From Candidatus Buchananbacteria bacterium (GTDB lineage: Bacteria; Patescibacteriota; Patescibacteriia; Buchananbacterales; UBA6539): a stretch of DNA of 64,000 nt. Below the pieces are notes generated by a model that was not told the DNA's origin, ran no database searches, and saw only the letters and a list, made by a program, of their open reading frames with translations. The position numbers and the translations under genes were made by a program. Location of the stretch: positions 360,021-424,020 of the forward strand of contig JABWCG010000001.1 of assembly GCA_013359225.1 (NCBI GenBank). Reading direction: 5' to 3'. This document shows, in pieces, positions 5,472 through 61,863 of this stretch (positions are counted from its first letter, which is position 1; every line of letters starts with the position of its first letter).

Positions 5472-5475
5472 TTAT

Positions 5476-6840
5476 ATGGCTCTACAATCAATTAACCCGG
5501 CTACAGAAGAAATTTTTTCCAAAACCGAAGAATTAACCAATGAACAGATTAAAGAAAAAATTACTTTGGCGGATCATACTTTTGCCAAATGGAGGACCAC
5601 AACATTTGAAGACCGGGCAAAATTAATTAATGAGGTAGCTAAAATTTTAAGATCCGAAGCCCAGACGATTGGCGAAATTATGACCAAAGAAATGGGCAAA
5701 CCTATCAAACAAGCCATAGCCGAAGTCGAAAAGTGTGCTTGGGTTTGCGAATATTATGCTAAAGAAGCACCTAAATTTTTAACTCCGGAAAAAATTACCA
5801 CCGATGCCAGCGAAAGTCTGGTTCGATACGATCCGATCGGTATTGTGCTTGCAATTATGCCATGGAATTTCCCGTTTTGGCAGGTTATTCGTTTTGCCGC
5901 CCCGGCTCTTATGGCCGGAAATGTCGGACTGCTCAAGCATGCCTCCAATGTTCAGCTGGCGGCTAAAAAAATTGAAGAAATTTTTTTGCGTGCCGGCATT
6001 CCGGTTGGGGTATTTCAAAATCTTGCCATTAGTTCCGGAAAGGTTGAAACAATCATTCGCGATCCAAGGGTTAAGGCGGTCACTTTAACCGGCAGTGAAC
6101 ATGCTGGCGCTAAAGTTGCAGCTTTGGCCGCTTCAGAAATTAAAAAGTCTGTCTTAGAACTTGGGGGCAGCGATCCCTTTATCGTCCTGGAAGATGCGGA
6201 CATAGCAAATGCCTGTTCAGTCGCCGTTACCGCCCGCAATATCAATAACGGACAAAGCTGCATCGCCGCTAAACGGTTCATTGTGGTTTCAAGCGTTGCT
6301 GAAGAATTCAAAAAATTATTTAAAGAAAAGTTCGAAGCGTTAAAAATTGGCGACCCAATGGCTGAAACAACCGATATCGGCCCGGTTGTCAACAAGCAGG
6401 CTCTGGAAGAACTAGAAAATCAAATCAAAAAATCAGTTGCCGCCGGCGCCAAAATTCTAACTGGCGGAAAGCGGGTAGGAAACACCGGCTACTTCTTACA
6501 GCCAACCATTCTGACTGAGGTCGCACCGGGCATGCCAGCCTACCACGAAGAATTTTTTGGACCGGTTGCATCAGTTATTGTCGTTAAAGACGAGGCTGAA
6601 GCCGTTCAGGTTGCAAACGATACCCATTTTGGTTTAGGTGCCTCAATCTGGACAAGTAACATCAGCCGTGCCAAACAGCTTATTCCGCAAATTGACGCCG
6701 GCGCTGTCTTTGTTAACGGTCTGGTAAAATCCGATCCACGCTTGCCATTTGGCGGTGAAAAGCGTTCTGGTTTTGGTCGTGAATTATCACACCACGGCAT
6801 CAAAGAATTTGTTAATATAAAATCGGTCTGGATTAAATAA
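5476..6840 (+). CDS. NAD(P)-dependent aldehyde dehydrogenase family protein
   Basis: ALDH signatures: the catalytic-Cys region GQSCIAAKR and the Glu motif LELGGSDP. Confidence 0.85.
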   Translation: MALQSINPATEEIFSKTEELTNEQIKEKITLADHTFAKWRTTTFEDRAKLINEVAKILRSEAQTIGEIMTKEMGKPIKQAIAEVEKCAWVCEYYAKEAPKFLTPEKITTDASESLVRYDPIGIVLAIMPWNFPFWQVIRFAAPALMAGNVGLLKHASNVQLAAKKIEEIFLRAGIPVGVFQNLAISSGKVETIIRDPRVKAVTLTGSEHAGAKVAALAASEIKKSVLELGGSDPFIVLEDADIANACSVAVTARNINNGQSCIAAKRFIVVSSVAEEFKKLFKEKFEALKIGDPMAETTDIGPVVNKQALEELENQIKKSVAAGAKILTGGKRVGNTGYFLQPTILTEVAPGMPAYHEEFFGPVASVIVVKDEAEAVQVANDTHFGLGASIWTSNISRAKQLIPQIDAGAVFVNGLVKSDPRLPFGGEKRSGFGRELSHHGIKEFVNIKSVWIK

Positions 6841-9007: not shown

Positions 9008-10447
9008 ATGTCAAACGCCAGTTTAACCAAGAACACTACGTACTATACCATTGCCTTAACTATCCAGAAAATTCTGGCTTTTGTTTATTTTTGGCTTATT
9101 TCAAATGCTTTATTCGCTGAACAGTTAGGCCAATATGTCTTTGCCCTGTCTTTTACCACCTTGTTTTCAATTTTCATTGACCTTGGCCTATCGCCAATCT
9201 TAACTCGAGAAGCCTCAAAGGATAAGCAGTCAGCCAATCAATATCTCCAAAATGTCTTAGGTATTAAGCTGCCGCTAACAATCATCACCCTAGCCGCAGC
9301 ATGGCTTGTCATCAATATTTCAAACAAACCAGACGACGTCCGACTTTTGGTCTACCTGGCCAGTTTCATTATGACGCTTGACTCGTTCTCTTTGAGTTTT
9401 TGGGTTATCTTTCGTGCCCGCCAGGTCTTAAAATATGAAAGCCTCACAACCGTTGCCGTACAAATAATTATCTTTACTCTTGGCGTCATTGCCCTTAAAA
9501 CCTCCGGCCAAGTCAAAGATTTAATTATTGCCTTACTGGTTGCCAGTATTTTTAACTTTTTAGTTTCTCTAGCATTACTTAAATTCAAACTTAAATTTTC
9601 AATTCGACCACGGTTTGACAAGACTATCGCTATTCACTTTCTTAAAATTGTCCCGGCTTTTGCCATTGCCGGAATTTTTGTCAAAATTTACAACACCTCA
9701 GATTCAGTTTTGCTTAGTTACCTTGACTCAGATGAAGCGGTTGGATTCTTTGCCGTCCCGGCCAAGGTGGTATATGCCTTACAACAAATTATCCCGGCTG
9801 CCTTTGCAGCCGTAATCTTTCCAGCGTTTAGTTATTATCACAAAAACTCTAAACCATTACTTGAAAAAACTTTTACTAAGGCCTTTAACTACCTAACAAT
9901 CATTAGTTTGCCGCTTACTGCCGGATTAATGGCAACCATTCCGGAAGTTACCCAAACAGTTTGGCCGGAATATACTGCCGTGGTTCCGACTTTTTATGTT
10001 ATGACGTTAGCCATTCCTTTTATATTTCTGGCGTTTCCCACTGGTTATTTATTAAACGCCTGCGATCGACAAAAAAACACCACCATCAACCGGGGCATTA
10101 TTACCTTTTTGGCCGTTACTCTTAATCTCATCTTAATTCCCAAGCTCAGTTATTTTGGCGCCGGAGTAACTTTTTTAATTACCAACTTTATTTTACTATT
10201 TCTTGACTTAATTTGGGTAAAACAAACCATCGTTTTGGAAACAAAAAAATTACTAAAGACCATTTTCAAATCATCATTAGCCGCCGCTCTGATGATTATT
10301 TTGGTTATCGCTATCAAATCATATTTTAATCTGCTGGTTATTATTCCGCTGGGTGCGCTGACATACTTTGGCGTACTACTGATGCTAAGGGGGATACAAA
10401 TCAAAGAACTAAATGAAATTTTTAACAAAGGTTTTCGCAATGGCTAA
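9008..10447 (+). CDS. polysaccharide/oligosaccharide flippase (Wzx-like, MOP superfamily)
   Basis: About 14 predicted TM helices arranged like an O-unit flippase. A -10 TATAAT at 8996-9001 lies 6 nt before ATG 9008, which suggests a leaderless transcript. The longer 8981 start in the track is less likely. Confidence 0.65.
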   Translation: MSNASLTKNTTYYTIALTIQKILAFVYFWLISNALFAEQLGQYVFALSFTTLFSIFIDLGLSPILTREASKDKQSANQYLQNVLGIKLPLTIITLAAAWLVINISNKPDDVRLLVYLASFIMTLDSFSLSFWVIFRARQVLKYESLTTVAVQIIIFTLGVIALKTSGQVKDLIIALLVASIFNFLVSLALLKFKLKFSIRPRFDKTIAIHFLKIVPAFAIAGIFVKIYNTSDSVLLSYLDSDEAVGFFAVPAKVVYALQQIIPAAFAAVIFPAFSYYHKNSKPLLEKTFTKAFNYLTIISLPLTAGLMATIPEVTQTVWPEYTAVVPTFYVMTLAIPFIFLAFPTGYLLNACDRQKNTTINRGIITFLAVTLNLILIPKLSYFGAGVTFLITNFILLFLDLIWVKQTIVLETKKLLKTIFKSSLAAALMIILVIAIKSYFNLLVIIPLGALTYFGVLLMLRGIQIKELNEIFNKGFRNG

Positions 10448-11635: not shown

Positions 11636-12313
11636 ATGGCTGAAATCAGCATTGTTATCCCGGTATATAATGCCCAAAAAACTCTACCAAATTGTCTGAA
11701 AAGTATTTTAAATCAAACATTTAAAAATTTTGAGATTATTGCCGTTAACGATGGTTCAACTGACGGCAGTCTGGCTGAATTAGAACAATATCGGAACAAA
11801 ATAACTATCATTAATCAACAAAATAAAGGTGCGGCTCACGCCCGAAACCAAGGTGCAAAAATTAGCCGTTCACCATTTATCATTTTTTGCGACGCCGATA
11901 TTATTATGTATCCAAAAATGCTTGAAACAATGATTAAAACGCTCAAGGTCAACCAAAACGCTTCGTACGCATATAGCTCATTTAAATTTGGCTTCAAAAA
12001 TTTTAAACTGTTTCCTTTTGACGGCGAAAAATTACGACAAATGCCGTACATCCACACCACGTCGCTTATTCGTCGCGAACATTTTCCCGGCTTTGACGAA
12101 AAACTAAAACGATTCCAGGACTGGGATTTATGGTTAACCATGTACAAACGGGGGTACGTCGGACACTTTATTCCTCAAGTTTTATTTGAGGTTGCTTCCG
12201 GCGGGACAATGAGCTCCTGGCTGCCGAAATTCATATACCGTTTTCCATTCTTAAAAAAGGTTAACGCCTATCAAGCCGCGAAAAAAATAATCCAGAAAAA
12301 ACATAACCTATGA
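11636..12313 (+). CDS. glycosyltransferase family 2
   Basis: GT2 N-terminal motif ISIVIPVYNAQKTL...IIAVNDGSTDGS and a DxD-like motif (CDADI). Confidence 0.85.
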   Translation: MAEISIVIPVYNAQKTLPNCLKSILNQTFKNFEIIAVNDGSTDGSLAELEQYRNKITIINQQNKGAAHARNQGAKISRSPFIIFCDADIIMYPKMLETMIKTLKVNQNASYAYSSFKFGFKNFKLFPFDGEKLRQMPYIHTTSLIRREHFPGFDEKLKRFQDWDLWLTMYKRGYVGHFIPQVLFEVASGGTMSSWLPKFIYRFPFLKKVNAYQAAKKIIQKKHNL

Positions 12314-12795
12314 TTGAAAAAGAAAAGAGCCAAGATCCGGAAAATTTTCAAGTATCATTAAAAATTTTACTTAAAAAAAATAATCAGTACCTACTTTTAA
12401 ATGTTGCTAAAACCGATCGGGTTGCCGGAATGGAAAAATTTGATTTACCCGGAGGACGGATCAATCGAGACGAACTCAACCTTCCTTTTCATCAGCTTGT
12501 TGACCGGGAAGTCAAAGAAGAGTTGGGGCCATTAATCACTTACAAACTAAGGCCAGACCCCGTTTCTCTCGGCCAGGCGATCATACCCGATTTCATTGAA
12601 ATTAAGCCAGGAGAAACCAGAAGCCGATTCTTTGTTCTGTTTGAGGCAGAATATCTTTCGGGAGAAATAGAAATATCGGATGAACATTCAGACTACCAAT
12701 GGACCGACTTGCAGCCAAATCACATTGAACAATTATTTACCCCATTACTATGGGATGTGCTAAAAAATTATTTTGATTGGAACACTAACATATGA
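12310..12795 (+). CDS. NUDIX-family hydrolase (atypical Nudix-box spacing)
   Basis: GGRINRDE ... REVKEELG resembles the Nudix box GX5EX7REUXEEXGU, but with 10 rather than 7 residues before RE. Its 4-nt overlaps with both neighbours place it in an operon. Confidence 0.55.
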   Translation: MIEKEKSQDPENFQVSLKILLKKNNQYLLLNVAKTDRVAGMEKFDLPGGRINRDELNLPFHQLVDREVKEELGPLITYKLRPDPVSLGQAIIPDFIEIKPGETRSRFFVLFEAEYLSGEIEISDEHSDYQWTDLQPNHIEQLFTPLLWDVLKNYFDWNTNI

Positions 12796-38403: not shown

Positions 38404-39462
38404 TTACCGTGAGGCTTTTTCTTCACGAGTTGAAGAAGGAATCGCCACTTCCCGCAACAAATTATCATCTTCAAGAATTAAGCCCATTCCGCGAACAGCA
38501 CAAGTCAAAGGGTCTTCAATCACTTTGACTGGAATTTTAGTAGCCTGGGAAATAATCCGTTCTAGTCCCGCCAGTAATGCGCCACCGCCTGCCAACACAA
38601 TGCCGCGCTGGTAAATATCGGCGACCAATTCCGGCGGAGTAATTTCAATGGTACTTTTAATACCGTCAATAATTAAGGCTACTGACCGCTGTAGTGCGAA
38701 TTTAATTTGATCCGCCGAAACGGTTATCTCTTTAGGTAGTCCGGTGATTAAATCTCGGCCTCTCATTTTAAGCTCAATCGTTTCATCAGTATCAATAATT
38801 TTTCCGGCCCGATTCTTGGCATCTTCAGCCACTCGTTCACCAATCAATAGATTAAATTCTTGGCGAGCAAAATTGATAATATCCTGATTCAAACGAGCAC
38901 CAGCAGTTCGTAAAGATTTCCAAGCAACAACCCCGGATAATGAAATAACGGCAATTTCCGTTACGCCGCCGCCCAAGTCCACCACCATATTGCCGGAAGG
39001 ATCTTGAATCGGTAGTCGGGCGCCAACAGCTGTAGCAATGACATTTTCAACCAGGTAAACTTCCCGCGCGCCGGCAGACAAGACCACATCTTCAACTGCT
39101 TTTTTTTCAACTTCAGTAACATCAAGCGGCACGCCAATAACAACTCGCGGTCGCGGCGCCAAACCAAACCGTTCTTGATAAATCCGATCAATAAAATATT
39201 TCAACATTTTTTCCGTTACTTCAAAATCGGAAATAATACCGTCAACCAACGGTCGGGAAATGGTGATATGAGGTGGCGTTCGGCCCAACATTTTTTGAGC
39301 CTCTTCCCCTACTGCCAAAATCTGATCATTCCGATTGTTGATGGCAACAATTGACGCTTCGTTCACCACAATTCCACGATCCTTAACGTAAATCAAAGTA
39401 TTGGCCGTACCTAAATCAATACCGACATCTCGTGAAAATTTTTTAAATAATTTATTAATCAT
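38404..39462 (-). CDS. mreB: rod shape-determining protein MreB
   Basis: Actin-fold motifs DLGTANTLIYV, DLGGGVTEIAV, LAGGGALL. The start is set at MINKLF (ATG 39462) rather than the upstream in-frame Met. Confidence 0.85.
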   Translation of the reverse strand: MINKLFKKFSRDVGIDLGTANTLIYVKDRGIVVNEASIVAINNRNDQILAVGEEAQKMLGRTPPHITISRPLVDGIISDFEVTEKMLKYFIDRIYQERFGLAPRPRVVIGVPLDVTEVEKKAVEDVVLSAGAREVYLVENVIATAVGARLPIQDPSGNMVVDLGGGVTEIAVISLSGVVAWKSLRTAGARLNQDIINFARQEFNLLIGERVAEDAKNRAGKIIDTDETIELKMRGRDLITGLPKEITVSADQIKFALQRSVALIIDGIKSTIEITPPELVADIYQRGIVLAGGGALLAGLERIISQATKIPVKVIEDPLTCAVRGMGLILEDDNLLREVAIPSSTREEKASR

Positions 39463-39547
39463 AATTAGGTGTAGATGACATAAAACCGGCTCATCAAACC
39501 GCAACGTGTGCCGGTGGATTTTTACGGTTTTTGTTTTTTTACTGCCC

Positions 39548-40789
39548 CTACTCTAAAATCTTAATCAAGGCTGGCAAATCAACTATCTGGCTCTGCGTTT
39601 CTGATCGTTTTTTGACTTCAATTTTATTTTTCGTTTTATTAGAAACCACTAGTCGGTATGGCACTCCGATCAAATCGGAATCGGCAAACTTTTGCCCGGC
39701 AGTCACTTCGGCCCGGTCATCAAACAATACCTCAACGCCACGATCCAATAACTGTTTATATACCGCTTCGGCGGCGGCCATTACTTCGGCGTCTTCCCCT
39801 AATCTGATCAAATGAGCTTTAAACGGAGCTACATTTCCCGGCCACACAATGCCTTTATCGTCATTATATACTTCAACGATCGAACCCATGACCCGGCTCG
39901 GACCAATACCATAGCAGCCCATTATAACCGGACGCTTTTTACCGGTTTCGTCGACATACTCTAATTTAAACGGTTCTGAATATTTGGTCTTGAGTTGAAA
40001 AATATTTCCGACTTCAATCGCTTTTCCTTCTTGAATTTTTCCTGTCGCACACTTAGGACAAACGTTTCCTTGAGCTACTTCAGCAACTTCTTTATTTTGG
40101 CAATAGCGGCACTGGTTGCAATAATAAACCGTATCTTCGCCATATGGAGTTAAAACCTGAAACTCGTGGGAATATTTTGAAAAACTGCCTCCCGAAGCCT
40201 CCGTAACCAGCGCATCTAGCCCGCAGCGGCTAAACACCCGCTGATAGGCCGCTAACGCTTTTTCATAGTAGGCAACCAAATCGGCTTCGTCTTTATGAAA
40301 ACTATACAAATCTTTCATTGAAAACTCAATGCCGCGCATCAGACCCGATTTTGCCCGCGGTTCATTACGAAATTTATCCTGAATTTGATACAAATATAAT
40401 GGTAAATCTTTATACGAATTGACAAACTTTTTAACTAGCGGCGTGACTACCTCTTCATGAGTCCAGCCTAAACCGAATTCTTTCTTGCCACGCCCCTCAA
40501 ATTGAAACATCACCTCAGTGCCAGGATCCGTCCAACGACCGGTCTTTTCCCAAACTTCTTTAGGGTGAAGTGCCGGCATTAAAATTTCTTGTCCATCAAT
40601 ACCATCCATTTCTTCGCGAACAATTTTTTTAATTTTGTCCAGCACCCGCAACCCCAGCGGCAAATAAGTATACACTCCAGCCGTTAACTTATCAATAAAG
40701 CCGGCGCGGGTAAGCAATGTCGCATTAAGACTCACTTCGTCTTTTGGGGTTTCTTTTCTTGTTTTTCCAAATAGTTTAGATTGTCTCAT
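39548..40789 (-). CDS. proS: prolyl-tRNA synthetase (short form without editing insertion)
   Basis: Class-II core plus a C-terminal zinc-binding Cys cluster (YYCNQCRYCQN...CPKC). Its 413-aa length fits the archaeal/eukaryote-like ProRS type. Confidence 0.85.
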   Translation of the reverse strand: MRQSKLFGKTRKETPKDEVSLNATLLTRAGFIDKLTAGVYTYLPLGLRVLDKIKKIVREEMDGIDGQEILMPALHPKEVWEKTGRWTDPGTEVMFQFEGRGKKEFGLGWTHEEVVTPLVKKFVNSYKDLPLYLYQIQDKFRNEPRAKSGLMRGIEFSMKDLYSFHKDEADLVAYYEKALAAYQRVFSRCGLDALVTEASGGSFSKYSHEFQVLTPYGEDTVYYCNQCRYCQNKEVAEVAQGNVCPKCATGKIQEGKAIEVGNIFQLKTKYSEPFKLEYVDETGKKRPVIMGCYGIGPSRVMGSIVEVYNDDKGIVWPGNVAPFKAHLIRLGEDAEVMAAAEAVYKQLLDRGVEVLFDDRAEVTAGQKFADSDLIGVPYRLVVSNKTKNKIEVKKRSETQSQIVDLPALIKILE

Positions 40790-46794: not shown

Positions 46795-47802
46795 CTACTT
46801 AATTGCCAAGATGCTTCGTTTGTACGACTCAAGATTTTCCAGCGCGATGCCGGTACCTTTTGCCACACAAAACAAAGCTTCATCGGCAACATAAGCCGGA
46901 ACGCCTGTTACTTGGGTAATCAGTTGGTCGATATTACGAAGCAAACTTGAACCACCAGACATAATAATTCCCTTATCGATCACGTCTGCCGAAAGCTCTG
47001 GCGGGGTTTTATGCAATACATCTTTTACTGCCTGAATAATGCCTTCAAGCTCAGCCTGAATAGCATCGGTAATGTCATCGGAAGTTACTGTAATCGTTCG
47101 CGGCAAACCACTTACCACATCACGACCGCGAACTTCTTCAGTCAAACGTTCTTCTAAATACATCGCTGAACCGATATCAATTTTGATTCGTTCAGCGCTG
47201 CGCTCACCAATCGCCAAATTGTAGCGACGACGAATATGTTCAGCAATTGCACTGTCAAAACGGTTACCACCAATTCGTACCGATGTTGAGGCCACGATAC
47301 CGCCCAAAGAAATAACTGCCATTTCTGAAGTGCCGCCACCAATATCAATAATCATATGGCCAGACGGCGAACCAATCGGAATATCAGCGCCAATTGCCGC
47401 TACAATCGGCTCCTTAATGATATACGCCGCCTTCGCACCAGCAGCAATAGTTGCGTCAATCACCGCACGACGCTCAGTTGAAGTGATACCAGCCGGTACG
47501 GCAACCATCACTTCAGGACGAAATAATCGTACACCACCCAATGCCTTATTGACGAAATATCTCAACATCGCAGCGGTTGTTTTATAATCAGCAATTACAC
47601 CATCTTTCATCGGCCGCACGGCAATGATCGTGTCAGGAGTGCGTCCCAACATTTCTTTTGCCTCTGCTCCAACGGCCAAAATTTTCTTATCAACAACAGA
47701 AACTGCCACCACGGACGGTTCATTAATAACGATTCCTCGCTTTGGTACATATACTAGCGAATTCGTAGTTCCCAGATCAATTCCGATCTTCTTTATCAAC
47801 AT
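46795..47802 (-). CDS. MreB-like actin homolog, second paralog (Mbl/MreBH-like)
   Basis: A full actin-fold motif set (IDLGTTNSLVYV, IDIGGGTSEMAVISL, MSGGSSLL). It is divergent from the mreB at 38404-39462. Confidence 0.85.
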   Translation of the reverse strand: MLIKKIGIDLGTTNSLVYVPKRGIVINEPSVVAVSVVDKKILAVGAEAKEMLGRTPDTIIAVRPMKDGVIADYKTTAAMLRYFVNKALGGVRLFRPEVMVAVPAGITSTERRAVIDATIAAGAKAAYIIKEPIVAAIGADIPIGSPSGHMIIDIGGGTSEMAVISLGGIVASTSVRIGGNRFDSAIAEHIRRRYNLAIGERSAERIKIDIGSAMYLEERLTEEVRGRDVVSGLPRTITVTSDDITDAIQAELEGIIQAVKDVLHKTPPELSADVIDKGIIMSGGSSLLRNIDQLITQVTGVPAYVADEALFCVAKGTGIALENLESYKRSILAIK

Positions 47803-51330: not shown

Positions 51331-52917
51331 CTATATCAATGGACTGCCTGTCATATCTTCCGGCTGATCAATTTCCAGCAGCTTAAGCAGGGTCGGTGAG
51401 ATATCGGCCAGGATGCCGGCAGGCGTCAACACACTTAAATCGCCGTTAGCACTGTCTAGTCCGGATACTAACGTTTTTCCCTTCCAGCGGTCGCCAACAA
51501 CAATAAACGGCACGGGATTAGTACTATGTTCTTTAGAGACCTCGCCCGTTTGCAAGTTAATCATTTCGTCGCAATTACCATGATCCGCTGTAATAATAAT
51601 TGAACCTCCGCTGGCCATCACGGCATCCGCAATCTGCCCTAAGCAACGGTCACAGGTTTCAACCGCTTTTACTGCCGCCGGAATTACACCAGTATGCCCC
51701 ACCATGTCGGGGTTGGCAAAATTAACGACATAAAAATCATTCTGACCTTCCTTAATACTTTTAACTAGCTTTTCAGTCAGCTCAACCACACTCATTTCCG
51801 GCTTTTGGTCATAGCTTGGAACAGCTGGTGATGGCACTAAAATTCGGCTTTCTCCTGGAAAAGGATCTTCGCGCCGGCCGTTAAAAAAGAAGGTGACATG
51901 TGCATACTTCTCAGTTTCAGCCGCATGCATCTGCTTTAAATTCTTGTCGGAAATAATTTTAGCAATCGGCGTTTGGATGTTCTCGTCCGGGAATGCAATA
52001 TCAACCGGTAAATCTTTTTCATATTCCGTAAAAGCCGTGAACTGCAAATCTTTAACTGGCTTGCGTTTAAATTTATCAAAACCCGGCAATGAAAAAATTG
52101 CTGTCATTTGTCGGGCACGGTCCGCTCGAAAATTAAAAAATATCATTGCATCTTTATCATCAACCGGTGCTACTGGTTTACCGCTGGATATAATTGCCGT
52201 CGGGACAAATTCTTCATCAAAAACATTCTTGGCGTATGACGCCTCAATAGCTTTAATTGGATCATCGAAAGCGACTTCAGCGGCACCTTCCGCAATAGCA
52301 CGATATGCCCGCTCCTCGCGATCCCAATGGTTGTCTCGATCCATGGCGTAAAATCGTCCGCTCAAACTGGCAATTTTACCAATGCCCACTTCTTTAATTT
52401 TATTCTGCAGTAGTTTAATAAAACCAATCGCCCCGTCTTTTGCTGTATCCCGGCCGTCCAAAAAAGCATGAATATATACATCTTTAAAATCATGCTTCTT
52501 GCACAAATCAAGCAAAGCATACAAATGATCTTGGTGGGAATGCACTCCGCCATTGGAGACTAGCCCCATTAGATGTAGCTTAGTTTTATTCTTCTTTGCA
52601 TATTTAACCGAAGCCACCAGTTTTTCATTAGTCAAAAAAGTGCCGTCTTCAATTGATTTGTTAATTTTCGGCAACGTCTGATAGATAATTTGACCAGAGC
52701 CCAAGTTAAGGTGACAGACTTCAGAATTTCCCATTTCACCCCACGACAAACCAACGGCTTCGCCCGATGCCTGCAGAGTCAAAGTTGGATAGTCACTAAT
52801 AAAACTGTTTAATACCGGTTTTTTTGCTAAAGCTACAGCATTGCCATTACCGGGAGCGGCAATGCCAAAACCGTCTAAAATTAAAAGCATTACTGGTTTT
52901 GGTCTGGTTTGGGCCAT
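51331..52917 (-). CDS. gpmI: 2,3-bisphosphoglycerate-independent phosphoglycerate mutase
   Basis: The phosphoserine loop GNSEVCHLNLGSG and a C-terminal metal-binding domain (ITADHGN). LILDGFGI is at the N-terminus. Confidence 0.9.
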   Translation of the reverse strand: MAQTRPKPVMLLILDGFGIAAPGNGNAVALAKKPVLNSFISDYPTLTLQASGEAVGLSWGEMGNSEVCHLNLGSGQIIYQTLPKINKSIEDGTFLTNEKLVASVKYAKKNKTKLHLMGLVSNGGVHSHQDHLYALLDLCKKHDFKDVYIHAFLDGRDTAKDGAIGFIKLLQNKIKEVGIGKIASLSGRFYAMDRDNHWDREERAYRAIAEGAAEVAFDDPIKAIEASYAKNVFDEEFVPTAIISSGKPVAPVDDKDAMIFFNFRADRARQMTAIFSLPGFDKFKRKPVKDLQFTAFTEYEKDLPVDIAFPDENIQTPIAKIISDKNLKQMHAAETEKYAHVTFFFNGRREDPFPGESRILVPSPAVPSYDQKPEMSVVELTEKLVKSIKEGQNDFYVVNFANPDMVGHTGVIPAAVKAVETCDRCLGQIADAVMASGGSIIITADHGNCDEMINLQTGEVSKEHSTNPVPFIVVGDRWKGKTLVSGLDSANGDLSVLTPAGILADISPTLLKLLEIDQPEDMTGSPLI

Positions 52918-52918
52918 A

Positions 52919-54499
52919 TTAAATTAAACTTTTACCCGTCATTTCTTTCGGTTTTTTAGCATTCAATAACTTTAAAATAGTTGGGGCGATGTCTCCCAAC
53001 TTTCCTTTTTTCAATTTTCTTTTCTTGTCAGACTTCTCAATTAATATAAAGGGAACCGGATTGGTCGTGTGCTCAGTATACATCTCTCGCGTCTCTAAGT
53101 CCAGCATTTTCTCAGCATTACCGTGGTCCGCCGTAATAATAAATATCCCGTTTCGTTTAAGCACTGCCGCAGCGATTTTACCGATTGATTCATCAATTGC
53201 CTCAACTGCCTTAATGCAAGCCTGAATGTTTCCGGTATGAGCAATCATATCGGCGGCGGCAAAATTAATGACAATAAAATCATAACTATCAAGCGATTTT
53301 AAAACCCTGCTGGTGATTTTACGAGTTGACATTTCCGGAACCTGATCATAAGAATCAACCGGCGGCGAGTCAAGCACTACTCGATCTTCCCCATTAACCG
53401 GGTCGGCATAACCGCCATTAAAGAAGTATGTTACGTGAGCATACTTTTCCTTCTCGGCAATATAAAGCTGCTTCCTGTCTTTTAATACCATCGGTAACGT
53501 TCCAGTAATATCTTCAGAAGGAAAAGCAGTTAAAATGGCTCCCAGGTCAGGACCAAAATCAGTCATAGCGGTAAACAAAATATCTTTCAAAACTTTTTTT
53601 CTTTTGAACGAACCAGGATTTAATTCATTAAACCCGTCTTGAACAAACGATTTTGCCAGTTGCCTTGCCCGATCAGACCGTAAATTAAAAAAGATTATTG
53701 CATCCTTATCTTTGATTTTAGCAATTGGTTTATCCTGGCGACAAATCACATAGGGCCTAATAAATTCATCTGTTTCACCGCGGTTATACGACTGAGTTAT
53801 TGCCGCCTGCGGACTTTTTATTTTTATTCCTTTCGCCATCACCATCGCGTCATACGCGGCTTCAGTTCTTGACCATTCTTTCTTTCGATCCATAGCATAA
53901 AATCGCCCCATAATCGTTGCAATCCACTCACCCGTCCTGACACCATTTTTAGTTTCTTTATTCTTTAGTGACCGCATCAGTGCCTCAACCATTTTTAACG
54001 CACCGTGCGGCACCGAATCTCGACCATCGGTAAAGATATGCAAATATACATTTTTAATCTTTTTTTTCCTGGTCCAACTTAACAGCGCCAACAAATGATC
54101 CGGGTCGCTATGAGCGCTGCCGCCGTCAGACAACATTCCCATCAAATGCAGGTCAGAATTATTTTTTTGCGTATGAACATACGCCGCCTCAAAGGCTGGA
54201 TTCTTAAAGAATTTACCAGTACTAATTGCCTTAGAAATATAAACCGAATCCTGATCAACAACCCGGCCAGCGCCGATATTCATGTGTCCAGCTTCTGAAT
54301 TTCCAGGTTGGTCGGCCGGTAAACCGACCTCCCTGCCGTGAGCAACCAACTCGGTATGAGAATATTTTTTCAGCAACGCGTCATAATTTGGTTTCTTTGC
54401 TAATTCAATCGCGTTTGCGTCCGACTTGGGCGCGATACCAAAGCCGTCTAAAACCAACAGCACTAACGGTTTTTTTGTTTTGGAAAGATTCTTATTCAT
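52919..54499 (-). CDS. 2,3-bisphosphoglycerate-independent phosphoglycerate mutase, divergent tandem paralog
   Basis: Same architecture: LVLDGFGIA, GNSEAGHMNIGAGR, ITADHGN. Only about one third identical to copy 1 by eye. Confidence 0.85.
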   Translation of the reverse strand: MNKNLSKTKKPLVLLVLDGFGIAPKSDANAIELAKKPNYDALLKKYSHTELVAHGREVGLPADQPGNSEAGHMNIGAGRVVDQDSVYISKAISTGKFFKNPAFEAAYVHTQKNNSDLHLMGMLSDGGSAHSDPDHLLALLSWTRKKKIKNVYLHIFTDGRDSVPHGALKMVEALMRSLKNKETKNGVRTGEWIATIMGRFYAMDRKKEWSRTEAAYDAMVMAKGIKIKSPQAAITQSYNRGETDEFIRPYVICRQDKPIAKIKDKDAIIFFNLRSDRARQLAKSFVQDGFNELNPGSFKRKKVLKDILFTAMTDFGPDLGAILTAFPSEDITGTLPMVLKDRKQLYIAEKEKYAHVTYFFNGGYADPVNGEDRVVLDSPPVDSYDQVPEMSTRKITSRVLKSLDSYDFIVINFAAADMIAHTGNIQACIKAVEAIDESIGKIAAAVLKRNGIFIITADHGNAEKMLDLETREMYTEHTTNPVPFILIEKSDKKRKLKKGKLGDIAPTILKLLNAKKPKEMTGKSLI

Positions 54500-58326: not shown

Positions 58327-58354
58327 GCGGGAAAAACCTGACGGATTTTCCCGC
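58327..58354 (-). terminator. terminator after thrC (GCGGGAAAA ... TTTTCCCGC)
   Basis: A 9-bp stem. The T-run lies on the minus strand (TTTTTATTTTTAT). Confidence 0.7.
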
Positions 58355-58371
58355 ATCTAACCCTTAATGAA

Positions 58372-59748
58372 CTAAAGCTTCATCAGCCGGGCCACTGTGT
58401 CCGGCTGGCAATCGTCGGCCAAAACCGGCTGAGTACCCTTTGGTTCCAGGAAGGGCTGACTGAATTTGAGTCCGTCGGCAGTGCAAATGACCACAACGGT
58501 TTCGCCTTCATGCACCAACCCTCGACTGACCGCTTTTTTCAGACCGGCCAACGCGACGCCGCTTTGCGGACAAACGAAATGGCCGTCTTTAGCGCAGGCC
58601 AGCACTGCCGGGTAAGCTTCCTGGTCAGAAGCGTCCAGAATCGCGCCGTTAGAGGCGATGATTTCCCGCATCACCTTGCGCTTAGACACCGGGTCGCCGA
58701 TTCTCATCGCCGTTGCCATTGTTTCGCCAACCTTAACCGGTTGGTAAATTTCAAGCCACTGCCGGACCAGTGCCGCCTGTTCATCGGCCGATAAATCCGG
58801 CCTGATGGCAATGTTCGGCCATGATATTGCCAGAGGGTTTGCAGCATTTGACTGGCAGCCAATAATCCGGGTCTGATGTTCAAACCCAAGGCTGGTCAGC
58901 AACCGTAAGGCCTTACCCACCGAACTGGCATTACTGCCATTACCAATCGGCACGAAAACGACATCAAGAGATTTCCAGCCGAACTGGCGAATCGCTTGAA
59001 AGACCGTTGTCTGATGTCCTTGAATCCGCGCCGGATTCAGACTGTTGCCAGGGTAAACCCCGCGCTTGACTAACTCACGAAATACTCGCATACAATCATC
59101 AAACGTTCCGGGCAGCAGGATCACTTGCGCGCCAAACAGCCTGACTTGCATCAGTTGCTCGGGCGTAATCTTGCCAGCCGGCAAGATGACTGTGCACTTA
59201 ATTCCGGCGTGGGCGCAAAATGCCGCCAGCGAAGCTGAGGTGTCACCCGTTGAAACACAGGCAATAAATTCGACACCGCCGGCTTTGGCGATGGAAACCA
59301 AGACGGTCATGCCATCGTCCTTGAAACTGCCGGTCGGATTTTTACCGCGAAGCGAAAGCCACAGCTTCAACGGCATGCCGATATATTCCTTAAGATGCCG
59401 TCCGGCCTCAACCAGCGGCACCAAGCCTTCACCAATCGAAACGATGTTGTCCGCCGATAAATCAGGCGCTACCCAGGGTTTGAAATCCCACACCCCGGAG
59501 TTAAAGTCTGACTTCCTGGCGAATAACGCCTTCCAATCGGCCGGGCGGTGATGTAGTGGTACCGGCACGATCATATCGTACAGATTGCCACAATCCGGGC
59601 ATGAAAAGGCCCGTTCAGTGAGCACGTCGGCTTTTCGGCCGCAGCCGATACATGACAGAAAAGACGTTTCTAATTCGTTCATATGTCCTCCCGGTCCGGT
59701 TAGGTTGGTTGTGAAAGGGACAAAAATAAGGTTTGAGACATTATTCAA
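58372..59748 (-). CDS. thrC: threonine synthase (with N-terminal zinc-ribbon)
   Basis: The PLP-lysine motif NPTGSFKDDG, an N-terminal C4 ribbon (CIGCGRK...CPDCGN) and a strong GGGAGGA SD. It lies in a high-GC block. Confidence 0.8.
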   Translation of the reverse strand: MNNVSNLIFVPFTTNLTGPGGHMNELETSFLSCIGCGRKADVLTERAFSCPDCGNLYDMIVPVPLHHRPADWKALFARKSDFNSGVWDFKPWVAPDLSADNIVSIGEGLVPLVEAGRHLKEYIGMPLKLWLSLRGKNPTGSFKDDGMTVLVSIAKAGGVEFIACVSTGDTSASLAAFCAHAGIKCTVILPAGKITPEQLMQVRLFGAQVILLPGTFDDCMRVFRELVKRGVYPGNSLNPARIQGHQTTVFQAIRQFGWKSLDVVFVPIGNGSNASSVGKALRLLTSLGFEHQTRIIGCQSNAANPLAISWPNIAIRPDLSADEQAALVRQWLEIYQPVKVGETMATAMRIGDPVSKRKVMREIIASNGAILDASDQEAYPAVLACAKDGHFVCPQSGVALAGLKKAVSRGLVHEGETVVVICTADGLKFSQPFLEPKGTQPVLADDCQPDTVARLMKL

Positions 59749-59828
59749 GCCTCAAAACACCTTAGACAAAAAATGCCGTTGCGTCAAGAAAAAACGAGCC
59801 TTGCAACCACAAGACTCGTCAAAAACCC

Positions 59829-60743
59829 TTAACGAACAAACAGACTGATTGGCACAACCACGATAGCGGTTGCGCCAGCCGCCTTCAATTCGGGGATCAG
59901 GCGCTCTACTGCCGACTCCTCAACAACCGCCTCCAAGGCAAAGCCTCCCGACTTCGAAAGATCCGACCTCGTCGGCTCGTCCGCCGACGGCAGAATTCGG
60001 CAGACATCACTGCAGTTTCTAGCCGCCACATTGCACTTGACAAGGACTTTGGTTCGCGCAGCAATCACGGCATTTAACAGCAGCCGAAATTCGGCGATGA
60101 TGTTTGCCTGAACCTTATTTTCCAGCGCCGCCGGATAAGTAATCAGACACGTCTGCGATTCCAGCGCCTGTTCAACAATGCGCCAGCCGCCGACTTTCAG
60201 CGAAAGCCCCGTTTCGGTGTTCTCAAAAATCGCGTCGGCCAAGCCATGAAACGCCTCAAGCGAACCATGAACATGAATGATATCGGGACTGACTCTCTTG
60301 CCATCAAGCCAGCGCCTGGCAAATGATGGATATTCGGTCGCCACCTCATGCTCTGGCATCAAATCAGTCACCGACTGGATCGGCGAATTTTCCGGCACCG
60401 CCAACACCAACTTAGTTGACCCGTACCCGCCACGCGACAACGGATACCTGTCTAAGACCACTACCTGGTCTTCAACGCCGGCCTCCGCAATCAAATCCTG
60501 AGCGGTAAACGCCAGTTCCGCCAAACCGCGGGCCACTACTTTAGGCGAATCCCACGGCCGCATTCGGCGAACAACATCAAACGGTGGCGCAAACAAACGC
60601 TTGTTGGCGATAATACCACGATACGATCGATCACCCCCCGGATAACTAACCGCACAATGGGCATCGGCAAGTAACCGGTGAATCACTTCCTTTAGTGATC
60701 CGTCCGGAACTACCAAGCGACATCCCTCACGACCCTCGTTCAA
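59829..60743 (-). CDS. hisG: ATP phosphoribosyltransferase, long form with C-terminal regulatory domain
   Basis: The periplasmic-binding-like catalytic fold and a C-terminal HisG_C-like segment (AAGATAIVVVPISLF). It overlaps hisI by 17 nt. Assignment is moderately confident. Confidence 0.65.
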   Translation of the reverse strand: MNEGREGCRLVVPDGSLKEVIHRLLADAHCAVSYPGGDRSYRGIIANKRLFAPPFDVVRRMRPWDSPKVVARGLAELAFTAQDLIAEAGVEDQVVVLDRYPLSRGGYGSTKLVLAVPENSPIQSVTDLMPEHEVATEYPSFARRWLDGKRVSPDIIHVHGSLEAFHGLADAIFENTETGLSLKVGGWRIVEQALESQTCLITYPAALENKVQANIIAEFRLLLNAVIAARTKVLVKCNVAARNCSDVCRILPSADEPTRSDLSKSGGFALEAVVEESAVERLIPELKAAGATAIVVVPISLFVR

Positions 60744-61125
60744 ATACGTATCCTCCTTCCTGCACTACACCATCAAGCTTAGTGAAAAAACAGCTTGGTT
60801 TACCAAAATGGCAGGCATACCCGTCGCCTGACACTTCAACCAAAAGTAGCACACAGTCTTTGTCGCAGTCAAGATAAGCGTCCCGGATTTTCATTGTGTT
60901 ACCGGATTCACCACCCTTATACCAAAGCAAATGGCGCGAAGTTGACCACAGCCAAACCTCGCCAGTCGCTTTAGTGTTTGACCAGGCTTCCTGATCAATA
61001 AAGCCGTGCATCAGTACCTCCTTTGTCCGGTAGTCCTGGACAATCGCCAGTACCAAACCGCCGCGCTGATTCAGCGACAAATCCAGTCGTGCTGAAAAAT
61101 CAGGAGCAAGCTCTTCTTTTTCCAT
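60727..61125 (-). CDS. hisI: phosphoribosyl-AMP cyclohydrolase (HisI domain only)
   Basis: LVLAIVQD ... the Cys-rich metal site (DCDKDCVLLLVE...GYACH). At 132 aa there is no HisE domain. Confidence 0.8.
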   Translation of the reverse strand: MEKEELAPDFSARLDLSLNQRGGLVLAIVQDYRTKEVLMHGFIDQEAWSNTKATGEVWLWSTSRHLLWYKGGESGNTMKIRDAYLDCDKDCVLLLVEVSGDGYACHFGKPSCFFTKLDGVVQEGGYVFERGS

Positions 61126-61186
61126 GTTCGTTCCCTCGCTTCTTGTGTTAAAAGATCAAAAAAACTTTTCTTACCCATAAGAAAAG

Positions 61187-61203
61187 CCCCGCCGAAGGCG
61201 GGG
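61187..61203 (-). terminator. terminator after yerC-like gene (CCCCGCC GAA GGCGGGG)
   Basis: A 7-bp GC stem with a moderately T-rich tract on the minus strand. Confidence 0.5.
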
Positions 61204-61294
61204 TAAGCTGACATTATCAAAAAATATCAAATTACCTCGACTCCGGCGAGTTTATTTGATGATGATTAAATTTTTGATTTATTACTGCAACCAT

Positions 61295-61588
61295 TTATTT
61301 ATCAATCCTTTTTAGGGCAAGATTATAGCCTCCCTCGCCGCGGTACAGCCAATGGGCCACGCGCGCTACTGTCGTAGTGCTTAAACCGGTTTGTCGCGCT
61401 ACTTCGCGGTATGACTTGTTTTGATTAAGTAACCGTACTGCCTGCCACCGTTTTGAAAATTCAGTGATTTCTTCAATCGTCAATAAATCGCGAAAAAACC
61501 GTCGGCAATCTTGAGTGGTTTTCAGACTTAAAATAGCACGATATAGCGCGTCAATCTGACTATGGTGCCCCTGGTGAGTTCCTTTCAT
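61295..61588 (-). CDS. TrpR-related YerC/YecD-family DNA-binding protein
   Basis: A 97-aa protein with a C-terminal HTH (YREVARQTGLSTTTVARVAHWL) and the YerC/YecD pattern. Confidence 0.7.
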   Translation of the reverse strand: MKGTHQGHHSQIDALYRAILSLKTTQDCRRFFRDLLTIEEITEFSKRWQAVRLLNQNKSYREVARQTGLSTTTVARVAHWLYRGEGGYNLALKRIDK

Positions 61589-61611
61589 ATTAGTGGTGAT
61601 TAGTTCTGTAT

Positions 61612-61637
61612 TACTGTATTAATATATTAATACAGTA
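61612..61637. promoter_or_regulatory. 26-bp perfect palindrome TACTGTATTAATATATTAATACAGTA upstream of yerC-like gene (candidate operator)
   Basis: An exact reverse-complement palindrome centred about 36 bp upstream of the yerC-like start. It has CTGT/ACAG arms like LexA/SOS boxes, but a 14-bp rather than 8-bp spacer. Confidence 0.5.
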
Positions 61638-61684
61638 GCATAAGACAAAAAAACTGTCAAGCGGGCGCCTTATTTAATAATCAT

Positions 61685-61710
61685 AAAACCCGAAACATGT
61701 TTCGGGTTTT
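61685..61710. terminator. palindromic bidirectional terminator AAAACCCGAAACATGTTTCGGGTTTT
   Basis: A perfect palindrome 10 nt downstream of the Cys-rich peptide stop. It terminates the gap-peptide transcript on the minus strand. Confidence 0.7.
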
Positions 61711-61720
61711 ATGATATTTT

Positions 61721-61837
61721 TTAATTACAGTCGCAAGTACAGCCCGGTTCGTGATCACAGCAATTTTTGCAAACGTCGCTCTGACAGCTGCAACGGATAT
61801 CATTGGTGATTTCCTCACCGCAATGTTGACACTCCAT
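61721..61837 (-). CDS. 38-aa Cys-rich small protein (10 Cys; metallothionein-like / zinc-ribbon-like)
   Basis: Read directly on the minus strand: ATG at 61837, TAA at 61721-61723. It translates to MECQHCGEEITNDIRCSCQSDVCKNCCDHEPGCTCDCN. It lies 26 nt downstream of the gap stop and shares CxHC / CSC / NCxC motifs with the peptide at 2801-2913. The 270-aa + strand ORF covering it is antisense to gap and is rejected. Confidence 0.4.
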   Translation of the reverse strand: MECQHCGEEITNDIRCSCQSDVCKNCCDHEPGCTCDCN

Positions 61838-61863
61838 ACTTTACTTTTTTATTTTTTATTTAA

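Follow-up and report, generated by a model that had tools for sequence, protein, structure and literature searches.

Two kinds of control described for histidine genes come closest to the subject of this work. In the first, YerC is HisR, a histidine-dependent repressor that binds a 20-bp palindromic operator; histidine as the co-repressor has been demonstrated only for the HisR of R. gnavus, and operators of the type TGTAnTAr...TACA belong to proteobacterial HisR and to TrpR (PMC9413887). The second is the attenuator in the his leader of enterobacteria, hisL (RF00514). Both kinds appear to be present in a 64,000-nucleotide stretch from a Candidatus Buchananbacteria bacterium (Patescibacteriota; assembly GCA_013359225.1, contig JABWCG010000001.1, positions 360,021 to 424,020), which in its whole length is called the window in the following. 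There, a hisR gene and a short leader precede two genes of histidine biosynthesis, hisI and hisG, and these are followed by thrC, a gene for threonine synthase.

Patescibacteria, or the candidate phyla radiation (CPR), are thought to depend on hosts and to be without amino-acid biosynthesis; nonetheless, one lineage keeps two histidine enzymes and a threonine synthase. A preliminary description of this DNA saw in the three genes, at 58372-61125 (2.75 kb), an isolated island of high guanine and cytosine (GC) content in a streamlined genome. The host is indeed a member of the CPR, but the operon starts about 500 bp upstream of the segment that had been delimited, with hisR, its operator and the leader, and two separate histidine-sensing devices are invested in its two his genes. 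This architecture of operator, leader, attenuator and conserved gene order is well supported, and we hold it with high confidence. The interpretation as a whole, to which we give moderate confidence, is that hisR, the leader, hisI and hisG form a working operon controlled by histidine, that thrC is a bona fide gene transcribed independently, and that the raised GC content came with an allele imported from a relative.

The control region of the operon

The features of the operon, from its promoter to hisG, are the following.

61655-61660 (-35, TTGACA) and 61632-61637 (-10, TACTGT), minus strand: hisR promoter, spacer 17 nt
61615-61634, no strand assigned: candidate HisR operator, TGTATTAATATATTAATACA, a perfect 20-bp palindrome that shares bases with the -10 hexamer
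61607-61626, no strand assigned: second candidate operator site, overlapping the first with an offset of 8 bp
61295-61588, minus strand: hisR, 97 residues, TrpR-like repressor of the YerC/YecD family
61232-61294, minus strand: leader open reading frame (ORF), MVAVINQKFNHHQINSPESR and stop, 20 codons, with two adjacent His codons at 61259-61264
61179-61250, minus strand: attenuator RNA, four regions and a U-tract
61187-61203, minus strand: terminator proper (regions 3 and 4), part of the attenuator
61165-61186, minus strand: second hairpin, CUUUUCUUAUGGGUAAGAAAAG, with the terminator U-tract as its 5' arm
60727-61125, minus strand: hisI, monofunctional phosphoribosyl-AMP (PR-AMP) cyclohydrolase of 132 residues; PF01502 and NF000768, no HisE domain
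59829-60743, minus strand: hisG, long-form ATP phosphoribosyltransferase of 304 residues; PF01634 and PF08029

With regard to the repressor, the protein scores 78.7 bits against PF01371 and 80.6 bits against TIGR02531 (cut-off 42.2), and alignments with the solved structures 3G1C and 3FRW cover its entire length (E = 1e-15 to 2e-16). The predicted operator at 61615-61634 is a 20-bp palindrome upstream of hisR and the his genes, as in HisR regulons. It is unique in the 64 kb, where 0.02 chance matches are expected, and it fits the HisR/TrpR-type consensus TGTAnTAr-nnnn-y..TACA (PMC9413887). Homologous palindromes occupy the same position in nine other loci, ten with the window, and none was found elsewhere in their flanks. 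The operator often consists of two or three overlapping 20-mers in an 8-bp phase, as in L004, L005, L017, L018, L019, L087, L094 and the window itself at 61607-61634 (L-numbers denote the loci compared with the window, P-numbers the members of the HisG clade). Half-sites phased in this way are reminiscent of tandem TrpR binding and suggest that several HisR dimers bind cooperatively. A promoter of the form TTGAC[AG]-17 nt-TAATGT/TAATAT lies upstream of yerC in L004, L005, L008, L017, L018, L019, L087 and L094. A position weight matrix scan for further HisR operators, for instance ahead of thrC or of a transporter gene, found none outside the hisR promoter.

No base separates the stop codon of hisR from the ATG of the leader (TAAATG). 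Is a frame of 20 codons with two histidines meaningful? In a random 19-mer with the composition of this proteome, the probability of two adjacent histidines is 0.005. Moreover, leader ORFs with His codons are present in the window and in L004, L005, L008, L017, L018, L019, L085, L087 and L094, with one to three such codons per lineage and HH or HHH in nine of the ten lineages.

The RNA downstream can be divided into four regions. Region 1, CUCGCCGGAG, comprises the last sense codons of the leader, and region 2, CGAGGUAAUUUGAUAU, contains its stop codon. Region 3 is AUGUCAGCUUACCCCGCC (AUGUCAGCUUACCCCG(CC)), whose CCCCG is the 5' arm of the terminator, and region 4 is GGCGGGG, followed by the U-tract CUUUUCUU. 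The naked RNA folds (z = -3.9) as a long hairpin with region 1 paired to 4 and region 2 to 3, and this hairpin, too, has the U-tract at its end. An alifold consensus of the attenuator contains five compensatory pairs. In eight lineages, 92.6% of the long hairpin is paired and six pairs are compensatory, slid controls giving 36-50%; the terminator is 94.6% paired across lineages and, being nearly invariant, carries no covariation signal. A counterpart of the second hairpin, UUGCUU...AAGCAA, occurs in L005, L017, L019, L087 and L094 with a compensatory C/G change. The same three-state logic recurs in L018, where neither the leader, MNYLFSIFGHHYALP, nor the stems are related to the others. The predicted structures thus combine a short ORF containing His codons with an antiterminator and a terminator that exclude each other, the latter ending in a U-tract.

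No Rfam family matched, RF00514 included, when the whole window was scanned at the gathering threshold and 61050-61800 at E <= 10; in particular, these scans gave no T-box, His leader, ZTP riboswitch or other family. As far as can be judged from its predicted folds, the attenuator works like those of the RF00514 family without being a member of it. The earlier suggestion that HisG and HisI moonlight in ZTP-related chemistry finds no support in these scans, and the control elements are specific for histidine.

How might these parts work together? The mechanism proposed here is inferred from the anatomy of the region and from the known behaviour of the families. When histidine is plentiful, HisR carrying histidine would occupy the operator that overlaps the -10 hexamer; a ribosome on the leader would reach the stop codon and cover region 2, and the terminator of regions 3 and 4 would form. 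When tRNA-His is poorly charged, the ribosome would stall at the His codons and cover region 1; regions 2 and 3 would then pair, sequestering the CCCCG of the terminator 5' arm, and transcription would enter hisI-hisG. HisG would convert ATP and phosphoribosyl pyrophosphate (PRPP) to phosphoribosyl-ATP (PR-ATP), the first step of histidine biosynthesis, and HisI would open the ring of PR-AMP, the third. The second step, that of HisE, and the later ones would be encoded elsewhere or be performed by another enzyme.

Some further elements were seen in this region. The first of the regulated genes has a conserved GATCTTTGAAA-like box directly before its ribosome-binding site, at about 61140-61155. 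A terminator stands ahead of the hisR promoter, and between this terminator and gap, at 61739-61855 on the minus strand, there is a very Cys-rich ORF of 38 residues, MECQHCGEEITNDIRCSCQSDVCKNCCDHEPGCTCDCN, which looks like a metallothionein or a ranthipeptide. An unrelated Cys-rich ORF, of 87 residues, stands ahead of hisI in L019.

Conservation of the locus among relatives

The HisG proteins most similar to that of the window form a clade of about 16 clusters with 41-78% identity, all other HisG having at most 40%. Around these genes a common order recurs: a Germane-domain gene, gap, hisR, the leader, hisI (not always present), hisG, a slot of variable content, a lipoprotein-like gene of 130 residues and pgk, continuing wherever enough flank is available with SIMPL, eno and two iPGM genes. 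It was found in L004/L015, L005-7/L016, L008-10, L017/L088, L018, L019, L087, L089, L094, L095 and L108, in each case with the operator upstream of hisR. The unit of hisR, leader, optional hisI and hisG thus stands between gap and pgk in at least ten related Patescibacteria lineages, and its presence at the same site in relatives means that it is not an insertion peculiar to this genome. Its position between these two glycolytic genes is constant within what is a small group of Buchananbacteria-like Patescibacteria. The picture of an isolated island does not hold for hisI and hisG, which are the payload of an operon that is syntenic across at least ten lineages.

The content of the slot that precedes the lipoprotein gene differs among loci: it is thrC in the window, and L018 has nothing there; hydrogenase-related genes are found in L004, L005, L017, L019 and L085, and a protein of 150 residues without an assigned family in L004 and L008. 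The closest relative, L109, is colinear with the window over the 3' end of hisI, hisG and thrC at 71% nucleotide identity. Its HisG and its ThrC are each 79% identical to those of the window in amino acids, and the intergenic terminator and promoter are the same, the promoter-like site before thrC reading TTGACT-17 nt-TAAGGT. In L098, a distant member of the clade, hisG, an ORF of 100 residues and a thrC-like gene follow one another. The adjacency of hisG and thrC therefore recurs, without evidence of co-regulation. The ThrC family itself, with about 50% identity, extends across Paceibacteria, Kaiser-, Azam-, Nealson- and Niyogibacteria.

A number of observations were made along the way. In L017 the His leader is followed, where other lineages have hisI, by an ORF of 293 residues (9127-10008) with CxxxCxxC and a SPASM-like C-terminus; it overlaps the hisG start and weakly matches the radical-SAM maturase family TIGR04317 (E = 2e-6). 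In the lineage of P0016, a conserved ORF of 79-100 residues without a family match is located directly 3' of hisG (L098 392-697, L108 5178-5417). L019 (CAZCCC010000012.1) has the full synteny of the Patescibacteria type and a GC content of 0.35, its gap protein shares 71% identity with that of the window, and its label "uncultured Gammaproteobacteria" is probably wrong. The tandem iPGM paralogues of the window (51331-54499) are about 42-45% identical to each other, and the pair is kept in L008 and L018. The window also encodes two MreB paralogues (38404-39504 and 46795-47802).

The enzymes encoded by hisI, hisG and thrC

All genes of the segment are on the minus strand. Beyond hisG the following features are found.

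59793-59820, minus strand: intrinsic terminator 3' of hisG, a 12-bp stem followed by TTTTTCTT; kept in L109
59759-59787, minus strand: thrC promoter-like site, TTGACG, 17 nt, TAAGGT
58372-59682, minus strand: thrC, threonine synthase of 436 residues with an N-terminal CxxC...CxxC segment resembling a zinc ribbon
58330-58352, minus strand: intrinsic terminator 3' of thrC, marking the downstream limit of the GC-rich block

HisI matches PF01502 only (87 bits, cut-off 27) and reaches the cut-off of NF000768 (126 bits, cut-off 126). Its best match among solved structures is the Methanothermobacter HisI 1ZPS (phmmer, E = 3e-24), with which the metal-binding motifs DCDKD, ACH and SCF align, DCDxD, CH and C being kept. 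The protein has the features of a monofunctional PR-AMP cyclohydrolase and no second domain of the phosphoribosyl-ATP pyrophosphohydrolase (PRA-PH) type.

The hisG gene starts with TTG after GGAGGA and overlaps hisI by 17 nt. Its product contains the catalytic domain (PF01634, 93.8 bits, cut-off 25.5; TIGR00070, 103.8 bits, cut-off 75.75) and the C-terminal, histidine-binding regulatory domain (PF08029, 69.2 bits, cut-off 23.5; TIGR03455, 79.4 bits, cut-off 40.05), and the best structural match is 2VD3 (phmmer, E = 2e-31). The PRPP-binding loop reads E-N-T-E-T-G-L-S-L, with conservative changes of D to E and T to S relative to the pattern D-x-x-[ST]-[ST]-G-x-T-[LM].

ThrC matches PF00291 and, marginally, TIGR00260 (173.3 bits, cut-off 167.1). 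The closest solved structure is 1E5X (E = 6e-62), and the motifs SFKD, with the lysine that binds pyridoxal phosphate, STGDTSAS and NSLNPARIQG (NSLNPxRIxG) align to 1E5X, 2D1F and 1UIM. The start of thrC has been corrected: ATG at 59682, behind GGAGGA, fits the deposited protein of 436 residues, and the TTG at 59748 given in the ORF list makes the frame too long. Identical proteins are deposited for all three genes, HisG as NUM25430.1, ThrC as NUM25429.1 and HisI as NUM25431.1. Going by their sequences, the enzymes are ordinary members of their families, and the identities first assigned to them, ThrC, long-form HisG and a HisI-only cyclohydrolase, stand, with family scores at or above the cut-offs and, apart from the changes in the PRPP loop of HisG, catalytic motifs kept relative to 2VD3, 1ZPS and 1E5X. 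In the 5' leader of thrC, after the promoter-like site, a stable hairpin is followed by AUUUUUG (59727-59764, minus strand); this hairpin might be a further attenuator or else a riboregulator. The 5' leader of thrC yielded no conserved leader ORF.

Origin of the raised GC content

The compositional part of the preliminary description is borne out. In 1-kb windows the GC content is 0.50-0.53 between 58 and 61 kb, with a mean of 0.41 for the window and a maximum of 0.486 elsewhere in the 64 kb; at 200-nt resolution the rise begins at about 58,350 and ends at about 61,150. The three most GC-rich of the 60 ORFs in the window are thrC, hisG and hisI, all of them intact. Their GC contents of 0.546, 0.549 and 0.486 (z-scores 4.7, 4.8 and 2.7) compare with 0.408 +/- 0.029 for the other 57, and their GC at third codon positions (GC3) of 0.60, 0.58 and 0.48 (z-scores 5.7, 5.0 and 2.4) with 0.39 +/- 0.037. 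The segment lies at a tetranucleotide distance of 0.431 from the window; for equally large windows the value is 0.197 +/- 0.045. The glycolytic genes on either side, said to have about 40% GC, have 0.39 (pgk) and 0.43 (gap).

What, then, is the source of this deviation? Nothing but the abruptness of the change would speak for a chimera, in which assembly or binning joined a fragment of higher GC content to a low-GC contig. The part of the window from 60199 to 61511 is 100% identical in three independent Logan assemblies, which shows that the junction of yerC, hisI and hisG, where the GC content starts to rise, is no chimera; the same gene order recurs in many independent metagenomes, and L109 is colinear over hisI, hisG and thrC. 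The identical locus is also carried by SRR10914234, SRR10914236 and SRR25608322. We consider this explanation extremely improbable.

A recent foreign island from a high-GC organism outside the Patescibacteria and confined to this genome, a form of the horizontal acquisition named in the preliminary description, would account for the compositional z-scores, and the nearest HisG outside the clade do come from contigs of GC 0.59-0.70. However, these outside proteins are merely 37-40% identical, the best matches of ThrC are in Patescibacteria, and the module is syntenic in more than ten relatives. The native-GC hisR and leader, in addition, are functionally tied to the GC-rich genes. The block thus deviates in GC, GC3 and tetranucleotides as an island does, but no tRNA gene, integrase or clear flanking repeat was found at it, and relatives have hisI-hisG at the same site. 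An imperfect 17-nt direct repeat, TT[T/A]GTTC[G/A]TTAAGGGTT, does occur at 58359-58375 and 59824-59840, 1465 bp apart, at the 3' ends of hisG and thrC; it was not seen at the hisG end of L109, and it could mark the junction at which a thrC cassette was inserted, or be due to chance. Taken together, these data largely refute a foreign island, which we regard as very unlikely.

The comparison among relatives points in another direction. Where the flanks have a GC3 of about 0.40, that of hisG is raised in the window (0.58), L004 (0.63), L017 (0.545), L018 (0.52) and L108 (0.63), and not in L005, L008 and L019; an enrichment intrinsic to the gene was therefore rejected as the sole cause. Between the window and L109, hisG and thrC differ at a proportion of 0.72-0.78 of synonymous sites (pS), with a nonsynonymous divergence (dN) of 0.14-0.17. 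Such values at saturated synonymous sites indicate strong purifying selection on both genes, and they also mean that, under vertical inheritance, the signature of a donor should have been erased. The trees are incongruent as well. In neighbour-joining trees of eight taxa, HisG groups the window with L004 (93%) and then with L005 (92%), whereas gap plus hisR groups the window with L018 (90%), L005 with L017 (100%) and L004 with L019 (76%). A high GC3 in spite of saturated synonymous sites, together with these trees, suggests an exchange of alleles among relatives, and Patescibacteria are reported to transfer genes mostly among themselves (PMC12455944).

These sequence comparisons suggest that the raised GC content came with an allele of hisI-hisG-thrC, or of hisG, from GC-richer related Patescibacteria at a conserved locus. 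In the proposed history, the hisI-hisG-thrC block would have been replaced by the allele of such a relative, with no island entering from outside the group. GC-biased conversion is possible instead of allele exchange. Of the horizontal acquisition first proposed, the exchange among related Patescibacteria survives and the foreign island does not, there being no marks of mobility and no outside HisG closer than 37-40%. The gene phylogenies then recommended for finding the donor did yield a HisG tree at odds with that of gap and hisR, but no donor was identified.

Two enzymes in search of a pathway

The finding of HisG and HisI raises the question of their partners. In Pfam and NCBIfam scans of essentially all ORFs in the 64 kb, neither a further his or thr gene nor a MazG or PRA-PH domain turned up. 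Searches by tblastn with E. coli HisD, HisC, HisB, HisH, HisA, HisF, HisIE and HisE alone retrieved only hisI, in the window and in every locus of the clade; as a control, they recovered the hisE that immediately precedes hisG in L099, L100, L102 and L106, loci of high GC content. The preliminary description was therefore right that HisE is not in view, either as a PRA-PH/MazG domain in the scanned ORFs or as a tblastn match. It was less so in taking a HisI without HisE for an oddity: 88 of the 150 nearest HisI representatives (phmmer; known by length) have at most 175 residues and the archaeal 1ZPS is monofunctional, so that this arrangement is not unusual. Neither hom nor thrB was found in the window or beside ThrC in four other Patescibacteria contexts. 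In the literature searched for hisG, ATP phosphoribosyltransferase or threonine synthase in CPR/Parcubacteria, nothing relevant was found.

Other genes of the window were noted in the course of these scans. A class II aminoacyl-tRNA synthetase of 413 residues (39548-40789), first taken for HisRS, is ProRS. At 3831-6840 a thiamine pyrophosphate enzyme of the acetolactate synthase large-subunit type (NF006187, 868 bits, cut-off 509) adjoins an aldehyde dehydrogenase; it is another enzyme of biosynthetic type without visible pathway partners. A NUDIX hydrolase (12310-12795; 25.1 bits, cut-off 21.1) is the only protein of nucleotide pyrophosphohydrolase type seen in the window, and it is pure speculation to regard it as a substitute for the HisE step.

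Are the genes perhaps the last pieces of an ancestral or acquired set for histidine, without a present function? This idea of a decaying pathway, raised already in the preliminary description, can draw on the repeated loss of hisI from the locus, recorded in four lineages, on a substitution in the PRPP loop of one subclade, and on the local lack of HisE and the later steps. It is confronted with a different kind of record in the sequences: all of the roughly 16 members of the HisG clade are full length, with no frameshift or internal stop in any hisG read, and dN/dS is well below 1 with dS saturated (dN 0.14-0.17 at pS 0.72-0.78), the mark of strong purifying selection. In addition, conservation extends to the operator, the leader and the pairings of the attenuator, with compensatory changes; this would be unexpected for dead genes at this divergence. 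Decay has some support, yet it seems improbable to us.

The main rival is a HisG with a function linked to starvation but outside histidine synthesis. Here the genes would be true orphans in bacteria with no histidine pathway, and HisG, with or without HisI, would be an enzyme induced by histidine starvation; its own role might be to drain or convert ATP and PRPP, to produce a PR-ATP-type signal or a growth brake, or to act as a histidine-binding protein. The loci offer several arguments for this: hisG, the operator and the His leader are kept where hisI is gone, more than ten loci have no further his gene close to hisG, the PRPP loop is altered in a subclade that includes the hisI-less L005, and in L017 the radical-SAM-like ORF replaces hisI under the same leader. 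It agrees with the report that the phylum as a rule does not make amino acids (PMC12455944). On the other hand, no precedent was found in the literature searched, both domains of HisG look canonical, and the control logic is that of biosynthetic his operons. Many genomes, moreover, have their his genes scattered, and in the loci of the nearest outgroup hisG likewise stands alone. We therefore regard this explanation as possible but doubtful. A more specific form of it appears slightly more doubtful still. In this form, a small clade of ultra-small Patescibacteria unable to make histidine keeps long-form HisG, and optionally HisI, for another purpose and controls it by two histidine sensors, the HisR operator and the His-codon attenuator; the cells could, when attached to a host, convert ATP and PRPP to PR-ATP-type nucleotides that signal starvation or slow down growth, or HisG could instead serve as a histidine-binding regulator.

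The preferred reading, a working biosynthetic operon, has to reckon with a series of facts that weigh against it. The searches found no hisE, hisA, hisF, hisH, hisB, hisC or hisD in the 64 kb or, for any locus of the clade, within 10 kb of hisG, and Patescibacteria are reported to lack amino-acid biosynthesis consistently (PMC12455944), which makes a complete histidine pathway unlikely a priori. The locus has no hisI in L005-7, L017/L088, L094 and L085, where hisG, the operator and the leader stay. The PRPP loop, at about residues 169-182 of the window HisG in the alignment, has E-W-G instead of E-T-G in P0004, P0009 and P0011 (= L005, without hisI) and E-R-G in P0007; judged from these residues, transferase activity may be changed or lost in that subclade. 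The leaders contain only one to three His codons. As for the GC content, allele exchange is an inference from the bootstraps of neighbour-joining trees with eight taxa and from composition.

The consequences differ according to the answer. If the remaining pathway is present, these bacteria would be a rare histidine-prototrophic group of the CPR, with an undescribed family of attenuators and with the first HisR regulon reported for the phylum, as far as the literature searched is concerned. If it is absent, a HisG with a role linked to starvation would be new for this enzyme.

Comparison with known systems

Set beside enterobacterial hisL (RF00514), the leader described here has the same short ORF with adjacent His codons, the same mutually exclusive antiterminator and terminator hairpins, and a stop codon placed so that an unstalled ribosome blocks the antiterminator. 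It differs in having one to three His codons instead of seven, and in giving no match to the RF00514 covariance model or sequence. It is translationally coupled to the repressor gene that precedes it, only hisI-hisG is under its control, and its second hairpin reuses the U-tract.

With the HisR (YerC) regulons of Firmicutes, Proteobacteria and others, the locus shares a regulator of the TrpR family with fewer than 100 residues (TIGR02531) and autoregulation; Patescibacteria, however, are not among the phyla listed in that survey (PMC9413887). The operator is AT-rich and of the proteobacterial or TrpR-like type, unlike the cacTTTA...TAAAgtg of Firmicutes (PMC9413887), and just two his genes are regulated. 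HisR and a leader attenuator coexist here, whereas in the survey attenuators were found only in lineages without HisR (PMC9413887).

A long-form hisG that stands apart from the other his genes with one partner from an early step is also known from the actinobacterial-type hisE-hisG pair, a two-gene arrangement seen in the high-GC loci L099, L100, L102 and L106. In the present case the partner is hisI, of step 3, and it comes first, with hisG following in an overlapping frame. At the level of proteins, the single-domain HisI and the HisG with a C-terminal regulatory domain resemble 1ZPS and 2VD3 of Methanothermobacter, but these are distant matches, and the P-loop of HisG is E-N-T-E-T-G-L-S-L here and D-L-S-S-T-G-T-T-L there. 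ThrC shares SFKD, the STGDTSAS phosphate loop and NSLNxxRxxG with the class I, plant-type threonine synthase 1E5X; its N-terminus carries CxxC...CxxC where the plant enzyme has an extension that binds S-adenosylmethionine, and in Patescibacteria, judging from four other contexts, thrC stands alone without hom and thrB as neighbours.

Finally, the block resembles a classical genomic island in its sharp deviation in GC, GC3 and tetranucleotides. It differs from one in having no integrase, tRNA target or clear repeats, in its conserved position, and in a cargo that is wired to regulators of native GC content. As this case shows, what stands out as a GC "island" in a streamlined genome can be a locus that is conserved in position and exchanges alleles between related bacteria.

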